A DNA stretch of 64,000 nt from an uncultured Lentimicrobium sp. (GCA_964547915.1 CAZJPP010000014.1:1426-65425); one strand, 5' to 3'. Positions 45,855 to 58,844 are shown, numbered from the stretch's first letter. A program made the numbers and translations. Notes: a model not told the origin generated them from the letters alone.

Positions 45855-46604
45855 TTATTTCCTGCCCAGAAAATCAAGAATCGCATTAATAAAAGTAAGA
45901 GGATGCACAGGGTTGCCCGGAATATACAGGTCAACCCTGTACTTTTTCAGAAAACTCCTGTCAATTGCCTCGCTATCAGCAAAAACCCCACCGCTGATTG
46001 CATCAGTTCCGGCAAGTACAATAATCTTAGGCTCAGGAATTGCCTTATAAGTAAGCTCAAGTGCCCGGGCCATATTTTCAGAAACCGGACCCGTAATCAC
46101 AATACCATCAGCATGCCTGGGCGAGGCCACAAAGTCAATCCCAAACCTGCTCATATCAAACTGGACATTATTACTTGCGTTCAACTCCCATTCAGTGCTG
46201 TTATCACCTGCAGCCGAAACCTGTCTGAATTTAATAGAACGGCCAAGAATACGGTGAATCTCTTTCCTAACCAGATCAGGGTTCATCAGAATAGGCATGT
46301 CTTCATTCTCCCTTACAATCAAGCGCTCTCTTTCATTAGACGCCAACTTGTAATCGGGCGTGAATCTTACCTTTTCGGGATATCTTAATGCACATTCGCC
46401 GCAGAAAACACACTTACCGAGATCAATTGTCACAGGATTAATCCCTATAGCCTGCGTGGGACAAACATCTTTCAACTTCTCTTCATTCACTTCAACGGCT
46501 GAAATAACAGGCCTTCCCCTGAATATTCCCGGTACTTTGGCATTCCGGATATCAGGAATATACTGTTTCCCCTGGTGCCACAATATCTTTAAGTTTTCGA
46601 GCAT
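45855..46604 (-). CDS. Ehr complex ferredoxin (NuoI-like) and small-subunit (NuoB/HycG-like) fusion with degenerate Fe-S ligands
   Basis: DVCP...CVFCGECALRYP; SPRHADGIVITGPV; ligand positions read GDNST, GTDAISGG, PGNPVHP. Confidence 0.85.
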   Translation of the reverse strand: MLENLKILWHQGKQYIPDIRNAKVPGIFRGRPVISAVEVNEEKLKDVCPTQAIGINPVTIDLGKCVFCGECALRYPEKVRFTPDYKLASNERERLIVRENEDMPILMNPDLVRKEIHRILGRSIKFRQVSAAGDNSTEWELNASNNVQFDMSRFGIDFVASPRHADGIVITGPVSENMARALELTYKAIPEPKIIVLAGTDAISGGVFADSEAIDRSFLKKYRVDLYIPGNPVHPLTFINAILDFLGRK

Positions 46605-46612
46605 AGCATTAA

Positions 46613-48208
46613 TTATAAATCATGACCACAGTACGACAAATTGAAACTCTTATTACAAACAGGGAAATCAGAAATTCCATTATCTCTGACTGCCTGAGCC
46701 AGCGCCATCCAGTTATGGAATGACGGATCCTTAATTTTATACAGCAGCAGCTCACCCTGATTTCCTGTTATAGCACAATGACATATCTCACCCCTCCATC
46801 CTTCTGCCAGAGAAACAATGAATGCATTAGCCATCGGTGTCATCTTATCCCATGCTTCATAAGAAAAGGAACCATCACGCTCTTCAGGCAGATGATTCAT
46901 CAGTTCACGGAGATAACCTATTGATTGCTTAATTTCTTCTTTACGTATCTGCACTCTCGAATAAACATCGCCGTGATGCTTGATTACAGGCTTATGGTCA
47001 ATCAGTTTTCCATAAAGGTTATAAGGATGAGATGCCCTGATATCCCTGTTAAGCCCACTCATGCGTGCAGACATACCAACAGTCCCGATTTCGAGCACTC
47101 GGTCATAGTTTACAACTCCGGTTTTTTCCATTCGCGACAGAGTGCTTGGAAGGCTTGTAAACTTCTCGGTAATTTCATCAAAGTCCTTTTCATAAGCCTT
47201 AAGAATATCAAGCAGCCTATTCTTAAGTGCCGGAGTAAAGGGATAATTTATTCTTGCAGGCCTTATCAGACCTTTACCCAATCTGTTTCCTCCCCATTCC
47301 TGCAAAAAATTGACCATAGGAGTCCTTAGACGACCATACACAGCATTTCCGAGCTGATAGGCAATATCTGCACATACTGCAGCAAGGTCGCCTGTATGAA
47401 TCGCCAAACGCTCAATTTCAGCAGCAACAGTCTTTCCGAAATCAAGCTCGTAATCTGCCTTAACTCCACAAAGACTCTCCCATAAATTGGCGAACACAGA
47501 TGTATGTCCTGCAACAGTATCACCCGCAATCTGTTCAGCAAGAACAGACCTTTCAATCAGTTTTTTCTTCTTTAGGAACAACTTCTCAACACCCCTGTGC
47601 TGATATCCCAGCTGAATTTCAAGGTGCATAATTTGCTCGCCATTACAAAGAAATCTGAAATGCCCGGGCTCAATCACACCGGCATGAACAGGCCCCACTC
47701 CCACTTCATGTAACTCCTCTCCGCTCGCTCTCAAAAAAGGATGGTCACCTATCCGAACCTCCGGATTATGGCGGTCATGCGAATACCTTAATGGCTTAAG
47801 CCAGGGATGATCATTATATTGTATTCCAAAGTTCTCGTGAAGTTCCCTCTCAAAACCTTCAAAGTTGTGATTAACAGCCGTAAGCGATGCGTATGACTCA
47901 TTTGATTTAACCCGTGTTGAAGAAATAAGGATTTTATGAAGCTCATCATCAGCAATACAGCAAAAGAGAGCTATTTCATCACCCCCTGCAGGTATTACTT
48001 TTGAATCCCCCGTTAAAGCTGTTCCTGCATGTTCCCTGCTCCCGAAAAGATTAACACAATGGCGGTGAGTGGCATCACGCAGAAGCCCTGTATTTAAATT
48101 AAGGAACTCCTCATAACCAACTACCGGTATTTTCGCAATCTCAACAGGTTGGTTATTCTCTGCTGATATAAATAAACTCTTGTCAAATGCTGATAACTGG
48201 TCCATCAA
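46613..48208 (-). CDS. Ehr complex large subunit (NuoC+NuoD / HycE-like) without Ni-binding motifs
   Basis: VGPVHAGVIEPGHFRF, LGYQHRGVEK, EIERLAIH, HGDVYSRVQIR, EGWRGE, KIKDPSF; L1 reads EQIAGDTVAGH and L2 reads DFPVCNKSFNLSYCGHDL. Confidence 0.88.
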   Translation of the reverse strand: MMDQLSAFDKSLFISAENNQPVEIAKIPVVGYEEFLNLNTGLLRDATHRHCVNLFGSREHAGTALTGDSKVIPAGGDEIALFCCIADDELHKILISSTRVKSNESYASLTAVNHNFEGFERELHENFGIQYNDHPWLKPLRYSHDRHNPEVRIGDHPFLRASGEELHEVGVGPVHAGVIEPGHFRFLCNGEQIMHLEIQLGYQHRGVEKLFLKKKKLIERSVLAEQIAGDTVAGHTSVFANLWESLCGVKADYELDFGKTVAAEIERLAIHTGDLAAVCADIAYQLGNAVYGRLRTPMVNFLQEWGGNRLGKGLIRPARINYPFTPALKNRLLDILKAYEKDFDEITEKFTSLPSTLSRMEKTGVVNYDRVLEIGTVGMSARMSGLNRDIRASHPYNLYGKLIDHKPVIKHHGDVYSRVQIRKEEIKQSIGYLRELMNHLPEERDGSFSYEAWDKMTPMANAFIVSLAEGWRGEICHCAITGNQGELLLYKIKDPSFHNWMALAQAVRDNGISDFPVCNKSFNLSYCGHDL

Positions 48209-49635
48209 TGAATAAGTTTAACTGATTCTTCAATCATTGAAATAAATTCATACGGCGGAGCATATGCAAGCCATATTGCAAGTATTAGCAAAACGTACTG
48301 ACTCAGAGATTCCCATGGACTTATTTTAGGAATCCGCGATTCATCTATTTTAACCGGAGGAGTAAACAACACTTTAAAAACATTGGTACCAAACCCCCAG
48401 ATAATTATTGTTAATAAAATCAGCACGGCCAGCAGAATCACGAAGTGATGTCCTTCGAACAGAGCCTGAAAAATCATAAGTTCGCTAATAAACAATCCTG
48501 ATGGAGGCATTGCGGTAGCCGAAATAAAACCGAGTAACAGCACAATAGCTCCCGCTTTATAATACTTAAAGTAGTTGCCCATATCGTAAACGCTCTTGCT
48601 CTCATAAACTCTGTATACCATACTAAACTGGAAAAACAAGCCCGGTTTAACAAAAGTATGTAGCACTATATGGAGGATGGCGGCATAAACACCAACACCT
48701 CCGGCTGCCAAACCAAGCATCACCAGTCCCATATGCTCAATACCTGAATACGCAAGAATACGCTTGAAATTCTTAACACGTGTCATATAAACCGCTGCAA
48801 CAAATATTGTAAGGATAGCAGCAATAAGAATTACAGCATTTGCCCAGCCTTTCAGTTCACTATGAGCCATAATAGCATACACCCTGTAAACTCCAACAAA
48901 TCCAACGTTCATTAAAACGCTTGCCAGCAAAGCGGCAGCCGGAGCAGGTGCTTTATCCTTTGCATCAATACCTGCGGTATACATTGGTACTAATCCCAGT
49001 TTCACGGTAAATCCGGTGAAAATGAAAAGAAACGCAAGCTTAAGCCAGAATGGATTTAACTGAGCACTGTGTTCATACAGCGATTTGAAAGTCATTGAAT
49101 CTATACCTGCCTGCTTCAGCGACAGGCTCAGGAAAAGGATGCCTACATAAATAAAAGTAATGCTGATTGCACAAAGGAACACATATTTCCACACTCCCTC
49201 GAGCGCTCTCATATTCCTGTGATGATATATCAGCACTGATGCACTCAGAGTCGTTATTTCAACAAAAATCCAGTTAACGGCAATGTGATTCGATATGTAT
49301 GCCATTGAACATGCCGTGATCAGTAAAATCATTGCTCCGAAGAACAGACCCCTTGAACCCGGTGTTTCTTCCTTTCTGTTTACGATATACCTGTACCCGT
49401 GCCATAATGCAGGAACTGTAACAATGGCCAGTGATGCAATCATTAATAAACCCAGTGAATCAGGCTGAAAATAATGCAATTCAGTCACACCTTTGTTAAA
49501 GAATGAGTATACACCATAACCCACCAGAAGCAAAGCATATAGAATAACCAGCGTGTAGTTGATCCGGGTATTTCTATTATAAATGAGCAATCCGCAGATA
49601 AGCAAAGAAGCTGCCAGAAAAATCCCTGTTCCCAT
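48205..49635 (-). CDS. hyfF: Ehr complex antiporter-like membrane subunit (HyfF-like)
   Basis: WIFVEITTL, ALEGVWKY, GFTVKLGL, KRILAYSGIEHMG, MPPSGLFISE; about 14 TM helices. Confidence 0.8.
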   Translation of the reverse strand: MGTGIFLAASLLICGLLIYNRNTRINYTLVILYALLLVGYGVYSFFNKGVTELHYFQPDSLGLLMIASLAIVTVPALWHGYRYIVNRKEETPGSRGLFFGAMILLITACSMAYISNHIAVNWIFVEITTLSASVLIYHHRNMRALEGVWKYVFLCAISITFIYVGILFLSLSLKQAGIDSMTFKSLYEHSAQLNPFWLKLAFLFIFTGFTVKLGLVPMYTAGIDAKDKAPAPAAALLASVLMNVGFVGVYRVYAIMAHSELKGWANAVILIAAILTIFVAAVYMTRVKNFKRILAYSGIEHMGLVMLGLAAGGVGVYAAILHIVLHTFVKPGLFFQFSMVYRVYESKSVYDMGNYFKYYKAGAIVLLLGFISATAMPPSGLFISELMIFQALFEGHHFVILLAVLILLTIIIWGFGTNVFKVLFTPPVKIDESRIPKISPWESLSQYVLLILAIWLAYAPPYEFISMIEESVKLIH

Positions 49636-49638
49636 CTC

Positions 49639-50268
49639 TTAATCCTTTAAATTTCTTAAAAGTTCAACATCAGGATCTTTAATGACATCACCAATTTTAT
49701 TAAAGAACACTCCCAAAATCAGCACACTGGCAAATATGTCGAGCATTATACCCAGATTCACCATCATGGGCATCTCATTTCCAACAGCGAGCGACAATAT
49801 AAAAACTCCATTCTCAATGATTAGATACCCGATAACATGAGTAATAATCTTCTTTCTCGAAACAATAAGATATAGCCCTGTAAACAATGTAGAAAGGGCC
49901 ACCACGAAAAAGGTTTTATCAAGATTAGGATCATCAATAGATCCCGAGATAATTATGGTAAGCACAATTATAAGTGTTACTATAATAAGCGACACAAAAT
50001 AAGGCACATAAGGTTCTGTTTCACGTGTAATCTTATTCCTCTTGATAATGTAGTTCATGAAATAAGGCACTGCAATAGCTTTAAATACAATAGTTTCGAG
50101 CATAATAAACAGCAGGTTCACCGTATTTACGTCTTTAAGAGTAAGATACGTCGTACCAAACAGAATCAATCCCTGTATTACAAGGATTCTCAGGTATGTA
50201 TATAACCTGTTGGCAATGCTCAGATAAAGCAGTGTCATGGCCAGGGCTATAAGTAGTATATCTGTCAT
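49639..50268 (-). CDS. hyfE: Ehr complex membrane subunit (HyfE-like)
   Basis: IVFKAIAVPYF, IITHVIGYLIIENGV, LGIMLDIF. Confidence 0.78.
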   Translation of the reverse strand: MTDILLIALAMTLLYLSIANRLYTYLRILVIQGLILFGTTYLTLKDVNTVNLLFIMLETIVFKAIAVPYFMNYIIKRNKITRETEPYVPYFVSLIIVTLIIVLTIIISGSIDDPNLDKTFFVVALSTLFTGLYLIVSRKKIITHVIGYLIIENGVFILSLAVGNEMPMMVNLGIMLDIFASVLILGVFFNKIGDVIKDPDVELLRNLKD

Positions 50269-50277
50269 GTTAGTGAT

Positions 50278-51183
50278 TTAAATGAATTTGCCCAATATTA
50301 AAAGCACTCCAAAAAACAGCAGTAATGAGAGTGACGTAAGTGTAAATATGAATTCAGGATTATGGCTCATCCTGAATCTTGCCGTAAACGATTCAATAAC
50401 ACCTACAACCGCGGCAAGTAAGACCTGTATACCAAGGAACGCGGGAATGCTAACGATAAGCGGTGATGCAGCAATATAAAAGTTAGCGATCAGGGCACCA
50501 TACATAGCAAACTTCAGGTTCGAAGTATACATAATCAAGCCAAGGTCAAAACCGCTATGGTCAAGTATCATAACTTCATGAACCATAGTAAGCTCAAGAT
50601 GTGTTTTAGGATCATCAACAGGCATTCGGCTATTTTCAATCATAGCAATCATAATCAGCAGATATGTTGCAAGGATACCTAGCATATAAGAGATATGAGA
50701 ACCAAAGTGCAGGCTGCTGAAAATTGAAGCAAAAGAAGTATTGCCGGTATATAAAGCGAATGAGCCCATTATAATAAAGAAAGCAGGCTCCACAAGCATT
50801 GCAAAAAGCGCTTCTCTTGCCGATCCCATTCCCTCAAAGCTGCTGCCGGTATCCAGGGCCGCAATAATCATCATAAAGCGTCCTAATGCCAACAGGTAGG
50901 CAAACATCACGAAATCGCCGTTAAACGAGATAAATCCCGGTTTGCTGCCATGAGGAATCATAAGTATGGCCATTACAACCGAAGAGAAATATATTACCGG
51001 TGCAATACGGAAAATCAAGCTGCTTGTGGAACTGTAAACCGATCCCTTTTTCCAGAGCCTGATAATATCTTTCATAGACTGCATTATCCCGGGGCCCTTT
51101 CTTCCCGAAGCAATACTCTTTGTCCGGTTCACTATCCCGGTAAAGTAAAAGCTGGCAAGTAAGATTAACACGAAACTCAACAT
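50278..51183 (-). CDS. hyfC: Ehr complex membrane subunit (HyfC/HycD/NuoH-like)
   Basis: GRKGPGIMQ..KDIIRLWKK, ALDTGSSFEGMGSARE, ENSRMPVDDPKTHLELTMVHE, IESFTARFR. Confidence 0.85.
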   Translation of the reverse strand: MLSFVLILLASFYFTGIVNRTKSIASGRKGPGIMQSMKDIIRLWKKGSVYSSTSSLIFRIAPVIYFSSVVMAILMIPHGSKPGFISFNGDFVMFAYLLALGRFMMIIAALDTGSSFEGMGSAREALFAMLVEPAFFIIMGSFALYTGNTSFASIFSSLHFGSHISYMLGILATYLLIMIAMIENSRMPVDDPKTHLELTMVHEVMILDHSGFDLGLIMYTSNLKFAMYGALIANFYIAASPLIVSIPAFLGIQVLLAAVVGVIESFTARFRMSHNPEFIFTLTSLSLLLFFGVLLILGKFI

Positions 51184-51184
51184 A

Positions 51185-53221
51185 CTACCACTGATTTATA
51201 AATTGTATCAACTCAATTACCTTGTCATAGAGCACAGGAACAATCACAGTTAAACCAATGAAGATGAAACCGTATAAAATATATGCCTGAATATTACCAT
51301 TCTGAAGAAATACAAACCTGTTTAGAAACTTCCGCATAAGGCGCAGAGGTTTATCAATCAACCATTTCTCAACCTTATCATATGGATGTGTCTCCTGATA
51401 TACCTTTTCGGGATACAACAATCCGGGTTCATGCTTATGACGTTTCACTAAAAGAACCGGCTCAGCAAGTTTACGGTAAGTTCTTATAAAAGATGAGGCT
51501 GTATATTGCATCTTACCTGCATCACCGGTATAACCGCAACCCCATGTTGATTCTTCCGTAATACTCCGGTTAGCTGTTAATAAGCGCCTTATAGCAAAGA
51601 CCACCAGTGTAAGCAAAACAAAAATGAGTGAATACCAACCAACAGAAGTTAAAATACCTGTAATCCCTTCAACTGATTGATACACATGCAAACTACTGCC
51701 CGAACCGCTGTATAAACCAACTACATTAGATAATACTGAAGTAAACAGGGTTGGAAACAATCCAATAAGCAAGATCAATCCTGCTATAATGTACAGAGGT
51801 CCCATTCTCCCGGCGTCTTCTTTAAGTTGAATATCCTCGATCCGGCTTCTGGGGGTGCCAAGAAAAACAACACCAAAAGCCTTGGTAAAACATATTAATG
51901 CAAGTCCGCCAATCAGCACCAATCCCAATATTGAAAAAAGAATGAATAAAATGAAGAGGAAATGATTTGATAAAAGACCATGAAACAGGCCACTGTATAT
52001 GAAAAACTCCGAAACAAATCCGTTAAAGGGTGGCAATCCACAAATAGCCAGTGAGGCTATAAGAAAGAGAAAAGCGGTCTTGGGCATCCTCTTAATAAGT
52101 CCACCCAGTTTCTCCACATCCATTGTGTGAGTAGCTTGGTAAACATTCCCGGCAGTATAAAACAACAATGATTTGAATAATGAATGATTTAGTGTATGCA
52201 ACATGGCCCCACCAAAGCCACCTGCTATTAACAGCGGATTATTATAGGCTACCCCGATACATCCAACACCGATACCAATTCCAATTATTCCAATATTCTC
52301 AATGCTATGATAAGCCAGCAGCTTCTTAAGGTTATGCTGTACAATTGCCAGCATAACGCCATATACTCCGGTAATAACTGAAATTGAAAGAATAATATAT
52401 CCAATTATCAGCATATCACTCTTAATTAGCAGCAGCGTTCTCAGTATACCATATATTCCAATCTTAATGATAACGCCCGACATAACACCTGATATATGGG
52501 CAGGCGCTGCAGGGTGTGCCAGAGGTAGCCATGTATGGAAAGGAACAAAACCTGCTTTAATGGCAAAACCCACAAAAAACAAAAGGAAAAGAGTAATTCC
52601 CGTAACCGCAGGCTCTGAATAAGTATAAGCTGCGATTGCCGACATATCGAATGTTCCCGTTCTCACGCGTGCAACAATAAATGCTATTGTGAGGAAAAGA
52701 ATCGATATATGCGATTGTATCAGAAAATTAATACCGGCTTTAAGCGTATCCCTTTTCTGATGTTCATAGATTATGAGAATAAACGAGCTTAGTGCCATAA
52801 TCTCCCATAAAACCAGAAAAACAATTCCATTTCCGGTAATACATATGTCGACCAGTGACGTAAAGGCTAATAAAAATGCAATTGAATGAAGTGCAAGCCC
52901 TGCTTTATCTTCAATGTAGCTCTTCATATACTTCATGCCATACCATGCGCCGGTAACAAAACCAAAGCTTATAATAAGAATAAACCAGGCAGAAAGGAAG
53001 TCAACCTTAACAGGTATTGTACCTGTGGTGAAAGAACCGGCATATGAAAAATTCACGGCCCCGTTAATAAATACCGAAACGGCAATAAACGAAGCAATAA
53101 TAGCCTGAACAGCAACAGCCACAAAGGTTATCTTGGCTCTGTTTCGGGTACTTAACACCGGGAAAGTCAGGAATGCAATAAATGGCAGAATATTGAATAA
53201 CTCAATCAACAGTTTATTCAT
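51185..53221 (-). CDS. hyfB: Ehr complex antiporter-like membrane subunit (HyfB/NuoL-like)
   Basis: LWEIMALSSF, FAIKAGFVPFHTWLPLAHPAAP, KKLLAYHSIENIG, NHSLFKSLLF, GLPPFNGFVSE, TWGCGY, YTASSF. Confidence 0.85.
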   Translation of the reverse strand: MNKLLIELFNILPFIAFLTFPVLSTRNRAKITFVAVAVQAIIASFIAVSVFINGAVNFSYAGSFTTGTIPVKVDFLSAWFILIISFGFVTGAWYGMKYMKSYIEDKAGLALHSIAFLLAFTSLVDICITGNGIVFLVLWEIMALSSFILIIYEHQKRDTLKAGINFLIQSHISILFLTIAFIVARVRTGTFDMSAIAAYTYSEPAVTGITLFLLFFVGFAIKAGFVPFHTWLPLAHPAAPAHISGVMSGVIIKIGIYGILRTLLLIKSDMLIIGYIILSISVITGVYGVMLAIVQHNLKKLLAYHSIENIGIIGIGIGVGCIGVAYNNPLLIAGGFGGAMLHTLNHSLFKSLLFYTAGNVYQATHTMDVEKLGGLIKRMPKTAFLFLIASLAICGLPPFNGFVSEFFIYSGLFHGLLSNHFLFILFILFSILGLVLIGGLALICFTKAFGVVFLGTPRSRIEDIQLKEDAGRMGPLYIIAGLILLIGLFPTLFTSVLSNVVGLYSGSGSSLHVYQSVEGITGILTSVGWYSLIFVLLTLVVFAIRRLLTANRSITEESTWGCGYTGDAGKMQYTASSFIRTYRKLAEPVLLVKRHKHEPGLLYPEKVYQETHPYDKVEKWLIDKPLRLMRKFLNRFVFLQNGNIQAYILYGFIFIGLTVIVPVLYDKVIELIQFINQW

Positions 53222-53258
53222 GATTCATTGATTAATAGTAATGAAATGAAGGCGTTAA

Positions 53259-55751: not shown

Positions 55752-58082
55752 TCAATTAATCATCATTATTTTGGCCACTTCTGTTTTTGAACCATCCTTG
55801 TTACTGATAAATACCAGATATACTCCTGTTTTCGCTCTTTTTCCGTCGAAGTTATATCCACTCCAGAGGGCCTGGCCTCCAATAGCGTCAGTAGAGTAAA
55901 CCAAATTTCCGGCGATATCGGTAATTTTAATGTTAGACCCTTCAACAAGTCCTTTAATAGCAATATTTCCGGTAAAATTCTTATAAACCGGATTTGGGAA
56001 TACAATAACATCAGTTAGTTCTTCTTTCGGAGGAACAGCTTCCGATCTGTAAGAAACAGTTCCACGCGGAGTTGAAATAAAAAGTTCACCTGCATCAGTA
56101 ATTGTAAGGTCTGTAATAGTGTTCGACAACAATGGGCTGTTATCCTCTGTAAAATGGAGAATTTGCTCTGTTCCGTCGGCCGACATCAGGAAAAGACCGG
56201 CTCTTTCAGTGCCAAACCACTTTCTGTTGGAACCGTCAACCGCAATTGCTGTAACAGTTTCTGTTTCCAGGAGATATTGGCCATAACCGTCCTGTTCTAT
56301 CAGAATCTTCTGAGCATCAAAATTCTGACCATTGAAAACATTATAAGGAGAATAGAACACCACTACACCTTCGTCAGTTCCCAGCCAAACGAGCCCTTCG
56401 CGGTCAACAGCAATACTCCTTACAAATGAACCGGGTATAGCACCTAATCCGGCTGCCCCCGACAATCTTTTTGTTTTATCGTCGGAATTATCATCAGGTG
56501 TCCCATTATCATTATAAACGAATAAATTGAGTCTTCTGCCAAGAATCCATTTCTGATTCAGTTTATCAATTACAATTCTGTCGCCTTCAATACCGGAACC
56601 TGATGCACCAAGCGAAAACGACTGCCACTCGCCCGAGGGAGTCATTCGTGAAAGCATTTCAGGAGCATAGGAGTTAACAACCCACAGGTTATTTTCAGTA
56701 TCAAATGATAATCCTGTAATGTCTATCCTATTGGGCTGTAATGCATGATCCTGCAACGAGCTGTTCTCGTCTGTGTATCTTCTCACAAAGGTACCATCGT
56801 TGTATTCAAGCAATCCATTTCCCATAGTACCTATAAATACACTCTTAGGATTAGCCGGATTAACGGCAACGGATAAGGCATCACGATATTCGACTAAGAA
56901 AGGATCCTGTTTTTCGTCAATTGTTTTCCATGATCCATCAACGAAGCCCGAGAATTTAACATTCCTGTATAGTGGTTCAAATGATGTATTGCGTCCTCCC
57001 GGCACCATCCAAACATCATTCTGTGCTGATGCAATGGCAAAAGCATCGGGGAAACCGGGCCCATTCAGACTAAACCGCTCCGAAGTCCATATTTTGGTGA
57101 CTTTTACCAATCCTTCTAAATCATCGCCTATCCATATAACATCATTATTCACCATAACAGCATCGCGTGGACTAACCTTACCCGGATTGTATGAGTAAAT
57201 ACGATAATCTCTGATACCATCAGGTTTTATAACATCGAGAGCCAGGTTAAGCGAAACCAAAAGCTTGTTGTTATGTACTTCCAGACTGGTAACATCAGAT
57301 GCGTTTTCATGATAAAAAGGCTGCCATTTCTCACCAATCTTCACATACATCCTATCATCGGCGTAATTATTCCCGTATTTGTTAACATATATTCTGTCGT
57401 TAAAAGCAGCAATGTGATTAAACTGACCTTCGGGCAGTCCCTCATTGTTGTTTGAAGACCATTCAGCAAAATTTGCAAGATTTGCGGTAATATAATTAGC
57501 TGAATACACCCCTGCATCAGTAGCTGCATAAACAAGCGAATCGACAGAATTAAACGTTAAGTCTCTTACATTTATGGCAGAACCTTCGGGACCTATGTAA
57601 TAAATAGGCTCAGGAAACTCCTCTTTCTCAATGTCGAGCACAACCACACCAAAACCGCATGATAAATATGCCTTGTTACCAAGAAATTCTATGCTGTTAA
57701 TTGATTTATCACCAAGTATAGCTTTTCTTTTTATGTCGGACAAATTCACTATCTCATCACCTTTCAGTAAATCGATATTAGCATTAGAGTAAGCTATAAT
57801 CAATGTATTGTAAGTTTTGTTGTATTCAATACTGCTGATACCAACATCACTCAGACCATTGATTTTTGTTACTCTTACAAGGCTCATATCACTCTGGTCG
57901 AGGAAAAAGAGTGCATAAGGAGTAGCAGCATAAATTCTGTTACCGGCTTCAGCCACTGCAATTACCTTGCTGTAAGGAAGATGGTCACGCCAGTGGCCTA
58001 TACCCACCTCTTGCGCGGTTGATGAGAAATCAGATAAAACTATCAGAGAAAAAAGTATTGTAAAGAACCTGCGCATAGCCAT
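55752..58082 (-). CDS. porZ: T9SS surface component PorZ (start moved from 58196 to MAMRRFF at 58082)
   Basis: IGHWRDHL, KINGLSD, LIIAYSNANIDL, GTDEG, IAVDGSNRKWFGT, FTEDNSPLLSN; CTD VFPNPV...TGVYLVF; recO directly downstream. Confidence 0.88.
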   Translation of the reverse strand: MAMRRFFTILFSLIVLSDFSSTAQEVGIGHWRDHLPYSKVIAVAEAGNRIYAATPYALFFLDQSDMSLVRVTKINGLSDVGISSIEYNKTYNTLIIAYSNANIDLLKGDEIVNLSDIKRKAILGDKSINSIEFLGNKAYLSCGFGVVVLDIEKEEFPEPIYYIGPEGSAINVRDLTFNSVDSLVYAATDAGVYSANYITANLANFAEWSSNNNEGLPEGQFNHIAAFNDRIYVNKYGNNYADDRMYVKIGEKWQPFYHENASDVTSLEVHNNKLLVSLNLALDVIKPDGIRDYRIYSYNPGKVSPRDAVMVNNDVIWIGDDLEGLVKVTKIWTSERFSLNGPGFPDAFAIASAQNDVWMVPGGRNTSFEPLYRNVKFSGFVDGSWKTIDEKQDPFLVEYRDALSVAVNPANPKSVFIGTMGNGLLEYNDGTFVRRYTDENSSLQDHALQPNRIDITGLSFDTENNLWVVNSYAPEMLSRMTPSGEWQSFSLGASGSGIEGDRIVIDKLNQKWILGRRLNLFVYNDNGTPDDNSDDKTKRLSGAAGLGAIPGSFVRSIAVDREGLVWLGTDEGVVVFYSPYNVFNGQNFDAQKILIEQDGYGQYLLETETVTAIAVDGSNRKWFGTERAGLFLMSADGTEQILHFTEDNSPLLSNTITDLTITDAGELFISTPRGTVSYRSEAVPPKEELTDVIVFPNPVYKNFTGNIAIKGLVEGSNIKITDIAGNLVYSTDAIGGQALWSGYNFDGKRAKTGVYLVFISNKDGSKTEVAKIMMIN

Positions 58083-58268
58083 TGAATATTTACAAATAAA
58101 CTGCAATTTTAACAATTTATTGCAGGCAGATAACGGGATGATTAAAAAACTGAAACTTGCGGGTTGAAAAAAACTGTTTAATTTTGTAAAAAGCATTTGA
58201 TTTTATACTTTTAGCATAAATTAAGTTTAATAAGCACGAAAGCCGTAACAGCAATTAATAACTATGTG

Positions 58269-58844
58269 ATGATACACTATTCTGACAGCGCCATCATTGA
58301 AGGATTGAAGCTCAATAGTGACTACATCATAAAGCACGTCTACAAAGAATTCTTTCCCACAATAAAATTTCTGATTAAAAAGAACACCGGTAATGAAGAA
58401 GATGCTGAAGATATCTTTCAGGAGTCATTACTTGTAATTCTAAAAAACGTGCAAAAGGACGAGTTCCTTCTTTCATGCTCATTTCTCACCTATTTATATT
58501 CAATCAGCCGCAATCTTTGGATGCAGAAACTTAAATCCAAGAGGAAAACAGGAGGCGATAAGCTTGAACTGCTGGAAAAATTTATGGAAATACCGGAATC
58601 ATCAGGTATTGAAATGGCTGAAATGGAGCAATTAAGATATAAAATTTACCGTGACCACTTCCATGCCATGGAAAAGGACTGCCAAAGAATACTGCTTCTG
58701 TCACTTCAAAAGTTCAGCTCAAAAGAGATTGCCGATACCATGGGCTATGGGTCAGAAAATTACGCAAAAACCAAAAAGTACAACTGTAAAGAAAGACTGA
58801 AGAAAGCCATAATGGATGATCCCCGCATGGCAGAAACTTTTTAA
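58269..58844 (+). CDS. ECF-type sigma-70 factor
   Basis: Region 2 EEDAEDIFQES...FLTYLYSISRNLW; region 4 SSKEIADTMGYGSENYAKTKKYNCKERL. Confidence 0.9.
   Translation: MIHYSDSAIIEGLKLNSDYIIKHVYKEFFPTIKFLIKKNTGNEEDAEDIFQESLLVILKNVQKDEFLLSCSFLTYLYSISRNLWMQKLKSKRKTGGDKLELLEKFMEIPESSGIEMAEMEQLRYKIYRDHFHAMEKDCQRILLLSLQKFSSKEIADTMGYGSENYAKTKKYNCKERLKKAIMDDPRMAETF

Follow-up and report, generated by a model that had tools for sequence, protein, structure and literature searches.

An Fe-S-depleted subclade of Ehr complexes in Bacteroidota with a predicted intact ion-translocating arm

The closest described relatives of the system examined here are the Ehr complexes. The first account of the gene set, credited to Coppi 2005, is of an 'Ech-hydrogenase-related' complex of Geobacter sulfurreducens (GSU0739-45), made up of EhrA-1, A-2, B, C, D, L and S. 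In Methylacidiphilum the set goes by ehrABCDLS, and Marreiros et al. 2013 are cited for the name 'energy-converting hydrogenase-related' (Ehr). The set has been listed in genomes since 2005, all the literature sources that we used give its function as unknown, and HydDB counts Ehr among the families without H2 metabolism that its classifier is trained to reject. Here, we analyse an ehrABCDLS operon at positions 45855 to 53221 of a 64,000-nucleotide stretch of DNA from an uncultured Lentimicrobium sp. (GCA_964547915.1 CAZJPP010000014.1:1426-65425; hereafter, the window). Judged from its sequence, the operon encodes an Ehr complex of a derived, Fe-S-depleted subclade that is widespread in Bacteroidota. 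Ehr itself is already known; the cofactor-stripped subclade is a variant set apart from canonical Ehr. An earlier note on this DNA had read the operon as a complex-I-like machine with an intact ion-pumping arm and no recognisable redox chemistry.

The ehr operon and its former NiFe site

The operon comprises six genes, all on the minus strand. The first, ehrA (51185..53221), encodes a NuoL/HycC/HyfB-like antiporter-type subunit of 678 amino acids (PF00361, Proton_antipo_M, 3e-51), whose C-terminal extension contains a WGCGY motif. It is followed by ehrB (50278..51183), for a NuoH/HycD-like subunit of 301 amino acids (PF00146, NADHdh, 2e-31), ehrC (49639..50268), for a HyfE-like, NuoK-type small membrane subunit of 209 amino acids, and ehrD (48205..49635), for a HyfF/NuoN-like antiporter-type subunit of 476 amino acids (PF00361, Proton_antipo_M, 2e-40). 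EhrC matches Oxidored_q2 weakly and NF008556, 'hydrogenase 4 membrane subunit', at 1.7e-17, which is below the cut-off. The peripheral subunits come last. The large subunit gene ehrL (46613..48208; 531 amino acids) fuses a NuoC-like to a HycE/NuoD-like domain (PF00329, Complex1_30kDa, and PF00346, Complex1_49kDa), and ehrS (45855..46604; 249 amino acids) joins a NuoI/HycF-type ferredoxin remnant (Fer4, residues ~30-115) to a NuoB/HycG-like domain (residues ~116-249; PF01058, Oxidored_q6, 7e-19). Successive genes are separated by gaps of 1, 9, 3 and 8 nucleotides, with a single overlap between ehrD and ehrL that measures 4 nucleotides with an ehrL TTG start and 1 nucleotide with an ATG one codon later; the ATG at 48205 is the probable start. 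These coordinates bear out the tight packing described in the earlier note, with gaps of 10 nucleotides or less and one overlap. The ehrABCDLS genes are translationally coupled, all six open reading frames are intact, and the operon, itself intact, looks expressed; its subunits are laid out as in hydrogenase-4 and complex I.

Profile searches attach hydrogenase and complex I names to these proteins. The top NCBIfam names are hydrogenase-4 subunits B, E and F, together with NuoD, NuoB and NuoI, and every one of the matches lies far under its curated equivalog cut-off, such as 486 against 667 bits for HyfB and 132 against 360 for NuoD.

EhrL lacks all four cysteine ligands of a NiFe center, those of the N-terminal (L1) and of the C-terminal (L2) motif. 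Its sequence matches in the PDB include MbhL (6cfw_L, 4e-34) and HycE (7z0s_E, 1e-32). In the HMMER alignments, mCGIC of MbhL is paired with iAGDT of EhrL, and DPCYSC of HycE with NLSYCG. The N-terminal CGxC position is accordingly occupied by AGDT (residues 228–231; 47516..47527, minus strand) and the C-terminal CxxC position by SYCG (residues 525–528; 46625..46636, minus strand), a Cys-to-Ser and a Cys-to-Gly replacement in the latter. Both strings in which the earlier note saw no CxxC, EQIAGDTVAGH and CNKSFNLSYC, are indeed present. EhrL stops directly after the C-terminal motif, without the protease-cleaved extension, and Gly229 aligns with the quinone-binding Tyr of the complex I DY motif.

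The altered motifs form a signature of the family. We aligned 70 of the 446 clusters that were recovered at E <= 1e-30 from 1.8 billion representative proteins, at 27-46% identity. CGxC is replaced by [AS]-G-D-[ST], with D230 invariant across the wider Ehr family, and LCYSCxDR by L-S-Y-[CSA]-G-x-D-L; the few relatives with CGVC or CGAC and ELCYSC are true hydrogenases. Family members also keep the β1–β2 loop GPxHAGxIEPGHFRF, R472 and the N519-K520-S521 segment. The AlphaFold2 (AF2) model of EhrL has a predicted template modelling score (pTM) of 0.82, and its top Foldseek match is HycE (7z0s_E, TM-score 0.76), ahead of NuoCD and MbhL. The predicted local distance difference test (pLDDT) falls below 50 in the β1–β2 region (residues 156–204) and the C-terminal motif (residues 511–531), which in homologues are elements that pack against partner subunits.

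Around the former NiFe pocket, S/T231, S525, Y526, R472, E180 and H175 are conserved together with D230 over the same range of identity. A pocket remodelled in this way might host non-redox chemistry, with the ion gradient driving a reaction or a step of binding or release, in analogy to vectorial CO2 hydration by the cyanobacterial NDH-1/CupA or DAB complexes. An invariant Asp at the former NiFe center, surrounded by these conserved residues, would suit such chemistry, as would the strong purifying selection on the EhrL/EhrS cap described below. However, no known catalytic motif or His/Cys set of Zn ligands was recognised with Pfam and NCBIfam, no substrate-related neighbor is conserved, and the pocket signature recurs in canonical full-chain Ehr and so is not specific to the stripped form. 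We consider this explanation very unlikely.

The retained cluster and the stripped clade

Canonical Ehr has a complete Fe-S relay in its small subunit; in EhrS, the only cluster ligands left are C48, C65, C68 and C71. By sequence, EhrS matches MbhJ (8e-19), HycG (3e-16) and NuoI (8e-4) in the PDB, and its AF2 model (pLDDT 81.5, pTM 0.82) finds HycG, NDUFS7 and MbhJ with Foldseek. The ferredoxin-like domain is modelled at pLDDT 86–95, and the loop at residues 133–147 at less than 50. The four cysteines (46392..46463, minus strand), of which C48 is followed by Pro, occur in 70 of 70 relatives. C48 is the last Cys of ferredoxin motif 1, and C65, C68 and C71 are the first three of motif 2. In the fold of a 2x[4Fe-4S] ferredoxin, cysteines at these four positions jointly ligate one cluster, and by this ligand pattern the four residues make up exactly one complete [4Fe-4S] site. 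EhrS therefore keeps a single ferredoxin-type 4-Cys site, which we take to be a candidate for the medial cluster of the relay. The earlier note had missed it, and its denial of any recognisable redox chemistry was overstated.

The remaining ligands are gone. Cys1–3 of motif 1 and Cys4 of motif 2 (F/Y75) are lost throughout the clade, whereas distant Ehr operons keep both. Where MbhJ and HycG have the four cysteines of the proximal cluster, the alignment gives D134, T137, D201 and N231 in EhrS, which mark the former site of an N2-type cluster (45912..46205, minus strand). D134, D201 and N231 are invariant in the 70 sequences of the clade sampled here. Position 137 is Cys in 61 of the 70 and position 185, which is not a ligand position, in 60; both are Thr in the window lineage, leaving its NuoB-like domain without any cysteine.

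Metagenome loci carry two types of EhrS. The distant, full-cluster type has CxxCxxCxxxCP, CxxCxxCxxxC and GGCNxCE/GxCAIS/PGCPxH, amounting to 12 Cys and three complete clusters. Of these cysteines, the Bacteroidota type has only the four named above, and its residues at the ligand positions of the proximal cluster are D, C/T, D and N. In a maximum-likelihood tree of EhrL, all stripped forms fall into one clade (100/100) on a stem of length 0.69 that arises from within full-cluster Ehr, with the Cys-bearing hydrogenases as the outgroup (100/100). As read from these alignments, the losses of the stripped clade comprise the ligands of the NiFe site, the proximal cluster (N2-type) and one NuoI-type cluster out of two. 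The earlier note was right to call the operon Ehr-type and the label 'hydrogenase-4' wrong, since the NiFe cysteines are absent and the tree, an analysis that the note had itself proposed, places EhrL on the Ehr side of a 100/100 split from the NiFe-Cys side. It was also right that loss of the small-subunit cluster marks a special variant, as canonical Ehr keeps the proximal cluster.

The clade is large and frequently misnamed. Database clusters that match EhrL at 62-66% identity number more than 8000 (Bacteroidales, Prolixibacteraceae, Lentimicrobium) and are labelled variously 'Ni,Fe-hydrogenase III large subunit' or 'NADH dehydrogenase subunit'. Thousands of entries under these names and under 'hydrogenase-4' mislead surveys of H2 metabolism. 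Carriers include Petrimonas sulfuriphila DSM 16547, Bacteroidales bacterium CF, Chryseolinea serpens DSM 24574 and Flavisolibacter. The A-B-C-D-L-S order is invariant in 75 species genomes and the same in ~60 more distant metagenome loci; among the 80 metagenome loci found with an EhrL alignment, it holds down to 37% identity.

Separately, we observed seven EhrL positions that are Cys mainly in the stripped clade: C51, C83, C84, C279 and C476 in at least 94% of its members, C478 in 86% and C247 in 77%. In full-cluster Ehr and true hydrogenases these positions are V, L, I, A or S, although a minority of full-cluster Ehr, too, have Cys at positions 476 and 478. Structure prediction places the clade-specific cysteines in the middle of strands or in a long helix.

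Could the operon nonetheless encode a genuine hydrogenase-4 or formate hydrogenlyase (FHL)-type [NiFe] hydrogenase, or a complex-I-type ferredoxin/NADH:quinone oxidoreductase? The best profile names ('hydrogenase 4 subunit B/F', 'NADH-quinone oxidoreductase subunit D/B') and the fold, which matches HycE and NuoCD, point that way. Against this, all matches are sub-equivalog, all four NiFe cysteines and all four proximal-cluster cysteines are missing, a Gly stands at the quinone Tyr position, and HydDB excludes Ehr. The source genome, moreover, has no hyp machinery and carries a separate, complete NUO11 complex I on another contig (C8). We give this explanation almost no credence; at the level of sequence, identity as a hydrogenase or quinone reductase is refuted.

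Selection, genomic context and mode of action

The membrane arm, by contrast with the cofactor sites, appears fully equipped. EhrA finds HycC (7z0s_C, 4e-61) and MbhH (6cfw_H, 1e-55) as its best PDB matches, and its E140, K222, K253, H342/H346/K350 and E405 are invariant in 58 sequences. The same holds for E126, K212, K330 and E385 of EhrD in 70 sequences. In EhrB, 24 residues that are charged or His are invariant, among them E117, E124, E132, E183, D190, D191, E197 and E203; in EhrC, the most conserved subunit (82% median identity), E58, E85, E152 and E165 are. The proton-relay residues (Glu, Lys and His) of both antiporter-like subunits are thus intact. The motif pairs on which the earlier note had based the same claim, LWEIM/FAIKAG and FVEIT/FTVKLG, are present, with their key residues invariant in 58–70 relatives.

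All six ehr genes are under strong purifying selection. Relative to the closest relative (locus L003; 87-97% protein identity across the operon), the ratio of nonsynonymous to synonymous substitution rates (dN/dS) is 0.066 for ehrA, 0.025 for ehrB, 0.029 for ehrC, 0.046 for ehrD, 0.088 for ehrL and 0.086 for ehrS. Across Bacteroidota, the membrane subunits show a median identity to the window proteins of 62-82%, and EhrL and EhrS one of 65-69%. The cap formed by EhrL and EhrS is conserved as well as the membrane arm and hence is not vestigial. The 'vestigial peripheral arm' of the earlier note does not survive these values, nor the many invariant residues of the pocket.

The same data bear on whether the operon is an evolutionary relic, heading for loss and without a current function. 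Cofactor sites have been lost progressively, down to the replacement of C137 and C185 by Thr in the window lineage, and distribution is patchy, with the stripped operon in 11 of the 301 genomes of the class sample and in 9 of its 170 genera. Yet six intact reading frames, dN/dS of 0.025–0.088, a gene order kept across more than 130 loci and thousands of homologues at 62-66% identity make a relic scarcely credible.

We turn to the genome that carries the window (2.96 Mb, 94% complete). Neither HypD nor NiFeSe_Hases had a match in it. The search for hyp genes had been suggested in the earlier note, which reported no hyp, formate dehydrogenase or NuoEFG genes in the window. Contigs C12 and C15 hold the NuoF-like genes of the genome, and C17, C8 and C3 its molybdopterin enzymes; the window's contig has none of them. 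Besides the complete complex I, the genome encodes Rnf, two HydABC-type [FeFe]-hydrogenase clusters, a NarG-like enzyme and a gene of the haem-copper-oxidase family; its energy loci are at C12:65086-77485, C15:49584-54665, C8:70416-80427, C17:25113-27296 and C13:65071-66402. The host therefore has a versatile, facultative energy metabolism without a [NiFe] hydrogenase. Mrp-type antiporter-like genes are absent from the source genome, PF03334 finding no match.

HypD is missing from 42 of 50 other carrier genomes. Few carriers have MnhG, of Mrp (2 of 51, each time beside hyp genes), and it is just as rare in the class background (16 of 301; Fisher p = 1). [FeFe] hydrogenases occur in 48 of 51 close relatives and in 3 of 11 class-sample carriers, against a background of 4 of 301; the association (p = 1.4e-4) is confounded by phylogeny and lifestyle, and for this reason we rejected a partnership between [FeFe] hydrogenase and Ehr. 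COX1-family oxidases were found in 14 of the 16 carriers tested (11 from the class sample and 5 reached through their loci). With the operon present in fermenters and in haem-copper-oxidase genomes alike, it is tied neither to H2 metabolism nor to strict anaerobiosis. Taken together, the presence of stripped Ehr is independent of hyp and [FeFe]-hydrogenase genes and, as far as the few MnhG matches tell, perhaps of Mrp. As a side observation, the MnhG-like gene of the two carriers lies within ~15 kb of HypD and an [FeFe]-hydrogenase gene (G338:C1:633122-655201 and G341:C64:4589-28188), which points to a hydrogenase island of the Mbh/Mrp type more than to a plain Mrp antiporter.

The surroundings of the operon were compared in 61 loci. 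A second, upstream ehrA-like gene recurs in 26 of them, giving the seven-gene, Geobacter-like form, and a divergent Crp-family regulator in 15; the window has a single ehrA. No formate dehydrogenase, NuoE/F, hyp or ferredoxin gene is a conserved neighbor in the 61 loci, and no redox partner gene is conserved beside the operon in them. The idea from the literature that formate dehydrogenase couples to Ehr was dropped, as neither that enzyme nor NuoE/F adjoins the operon in any of these loci; the source genome's own molybdoenzymes, one of them NarG-like, lie away from ehr. Of the 'unknown partner' proposed in the earlier note, the partner itself stands as a suggestion, to which we add that none is encoded nearby.

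A redox-driven pump could still draw on a donor and an acceptor encoded elsewhere. Here, reduced ferredoxin or a docking oxidoreductase would reduce the retained cluster, and a substrate close to the cluster or in the EhrL pocket would be reduced in turn, with this reaction powering ion translocation in the manner of Mbh, FHL or complex I. That the 4-Cys site is invariant though the adjacent cluster ligands are lost suggests that the cluster itself matters, and the conserved pocket residues fit as well. The source genome makes low-potential ferredoxin, as Rnf and the two HydABC-type clusters indicate, [FeFe] hydrogenases are present in nearly all close-relative genomes (48/51), and Geobacter Ehr subunits rise on formate according to the literature. 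The difficulty lies in the wiring. With the proximal cluster gone, nothing relays electrons to the pocket, and if the retained cluster is, as we presume, the medial one, then the usual entry cluster for ferredoxin is the one that was lost. Searches with Pfam and NCBIfam found no acceptor site and no flavin- or NAD(P)-binding motif, no partner is conserved nearby, 8 of the 11 class-sample carriers have no [FeFe] hydrogenase, and most have haem-copper oxidases. An isolated cluster with neither a catalytic metal site nor a conserved partner would probably not sustain a flow of electrons to the pocket; and since the relay normally depends on the proximal cluster, pumping driven by redox chemistry, as in Mbh, FHL or complex I, seems improbable. 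On balance we regard a redox-driven pump as unlikely, though it is the foremost alternative.

We tentatively favor, with somewhat less than even confidence, an ion translocator that works without an electron chain and uses the EhrL/EhrS cap as a coupling or gating module. H+, perhaps Na+, would move through the intact antiporter-type channels without redox drive, making the complex a gradient-driven or gated translocator. In the cap, a polar pocket (D230, S/T231, S525, R472, E180) would take the place of the NiFe site, and the retained [4Fe-4S] cluster would be structural or act as a redox sensor. In standard [NiFe] hydrogenases, the residue between the two L1 cysteines is a gas-channel gate beside the Ni. 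If this assignment carries over, Asp230 should face the former active-site cavity and could be a protonatable trigger.

Several points weigh against such a translocator. A plain secondary transporter leaves unexplained why cap, pocket and Fe-S site are under selection as strong as that on the membrane arm, and this is its main weakness. MrpE/F/G/B-like subunits, which Mrp and Mbh use for Na+, are absent from the six operon proteins, with no MrpE, MrpF or MrpG family match in Pfam or NCBIfam; the 'Mrp-like' of the earlier note holds only as an analogy. A soluble partner encoded elsewhere is possible, and the clade-specific EhrL cysteines could form a new metal site. For the latter, the predicted placement in strands and a helix and the V, L, I or A found in other Ehr would fit packing positions better.

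A bolder version of the translocator gives the cluster a regulatory part. The complex would then be a complex-I-type converter without an electron chain, in which the retained cluster, probably equivalent to the medial N6b, senses redox state or oxygen and gates H+/Na+ flux via the Asp pocket of EhrL. We hold this to be decidedly unlikely. If true, substrate reduction need not be what drives or controls the conformational coupling of complex I.

How a peripheral arm drives distant antiporter modules in complex-I-like machines is still debated. With catalytic site and electron wire gone and the coupling apparatus kept under strong selection, the stripped Ehr complex offers a clean test case. 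It raises the question of whether a membrane arm can act as a stand-alone ion translocator and what the cap contributes, and it is directly testable in cultured carriers such as Petrimonas sulfuriphila and Chryseolinea serpens.

Locally, the operon lies downstream of lysS and recO and upstream of a convergent TonB-dependent receptor gene, a synteny found only with the closest relatives. The lysS–ehrA gap (53222-53258, 37 nucleotides) has no terminator-like hairpin, an arrangement common to L003, L005, L020 and L066, and in the window lineage the operon may be co-transcribed with lysS by read-through. A promoter and terminator scan found sites no more numerous than in shuffled controls. In several relatives, unrelated genes sit between ehrL and ehrS (L016:11513-14904, L023:11589-14673, L010, L015, L022 and L012), among them outer-membrane- or lipoprotein-like reading frames, an IS200-like transposase and a four-helix 'S23 ribosomal-like' protein; co-transcription of ehrL and ehrS is therefore not obligatory. 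In two further loci the intervening gene encodes a malic enzyme (PF00390 and PF03949; L044:11512-12789 and L067:11574-12767), which may be incidental. One contig labelled 'Omnitrophica WOR_2' (L005, JBLMZZ010000193.1) shares the recO-lysS-ehr-TonB receptor synteny at 60-85% identity to the window, suggesting that it is mis-binned or mislabelled. Farther upstream, genes on both strands at 55752-58196, 58266-58844 and 58920-59534 encode a PorZ-like component of type IX secretion, which carries a sorting domain at its C terminus, as well as an ECF-type sigma factor and a rubrerythrin.

Comparison with known systems

The closest match is with the Ehr complexes of Geobacter and Methylacidiphilum, which have the same subunit set and order, the same GD[ST]/LSY[CSA]GxDL signature and the same NuoI–NuoB fusion in EhrS. 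Two features separate the window operon from other Ehr. The distant operons sampled keep three Fe-S sites in EhrS, whereas the window clade has one, and Geobacter, like the 26 related loci noted above, has two ehrA copies to the window's one.

Among hydrogenases, the E. coli Hyf and Hyc systems (7Z0S) supply the best matches: HycC for EhrA, HycE for EhrL, HycG for EhrS, HyfE for EhrC and HyfF for EhrD. In contrast to these, the window operon is without the NiFe site, the C-terminal extension of HycE, HycB/HycF-type chains, FdhF, hyp genes and the proximal cluster. The Pyrococcus furiosus complexes Mbh (6CFW) and Mbs (6U8Y) likewise share with it a hydrogenase-type module seated on a NuoH-like subunit and an antiporter-like arm. 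Mbs, a sulfane reductase, provides a precedent for a functioning family member without a NiFe site. Both complexes, however, have the full set of three [4Fe-4S] clusters along with Na+ modules of the Mrp type (MbhA-C, F and others), neither of which the window complex has.

Compared with complex I, represented by the NUO11 set of the source genome, the operon has counterparts of NuoB, C, D, H, K, L, M and N, and its Glu/Lys relay is intact. It is without N2, the quinone Tyr, NuoA and NuoJ, and all that is left of NuoI is a domain with one cluster, joined to NuoB. With Mrp (Mnh/Pha) antiporters it has in common two MrpA/D-type subunits and a NuoK/MrpC-like one, and a redox-independent mode is plausible. 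Mrp, however, has no peripheral arm and needs MrpE/F/G, whereas the window complex has the arm and dispenses with MrpE/F/G.

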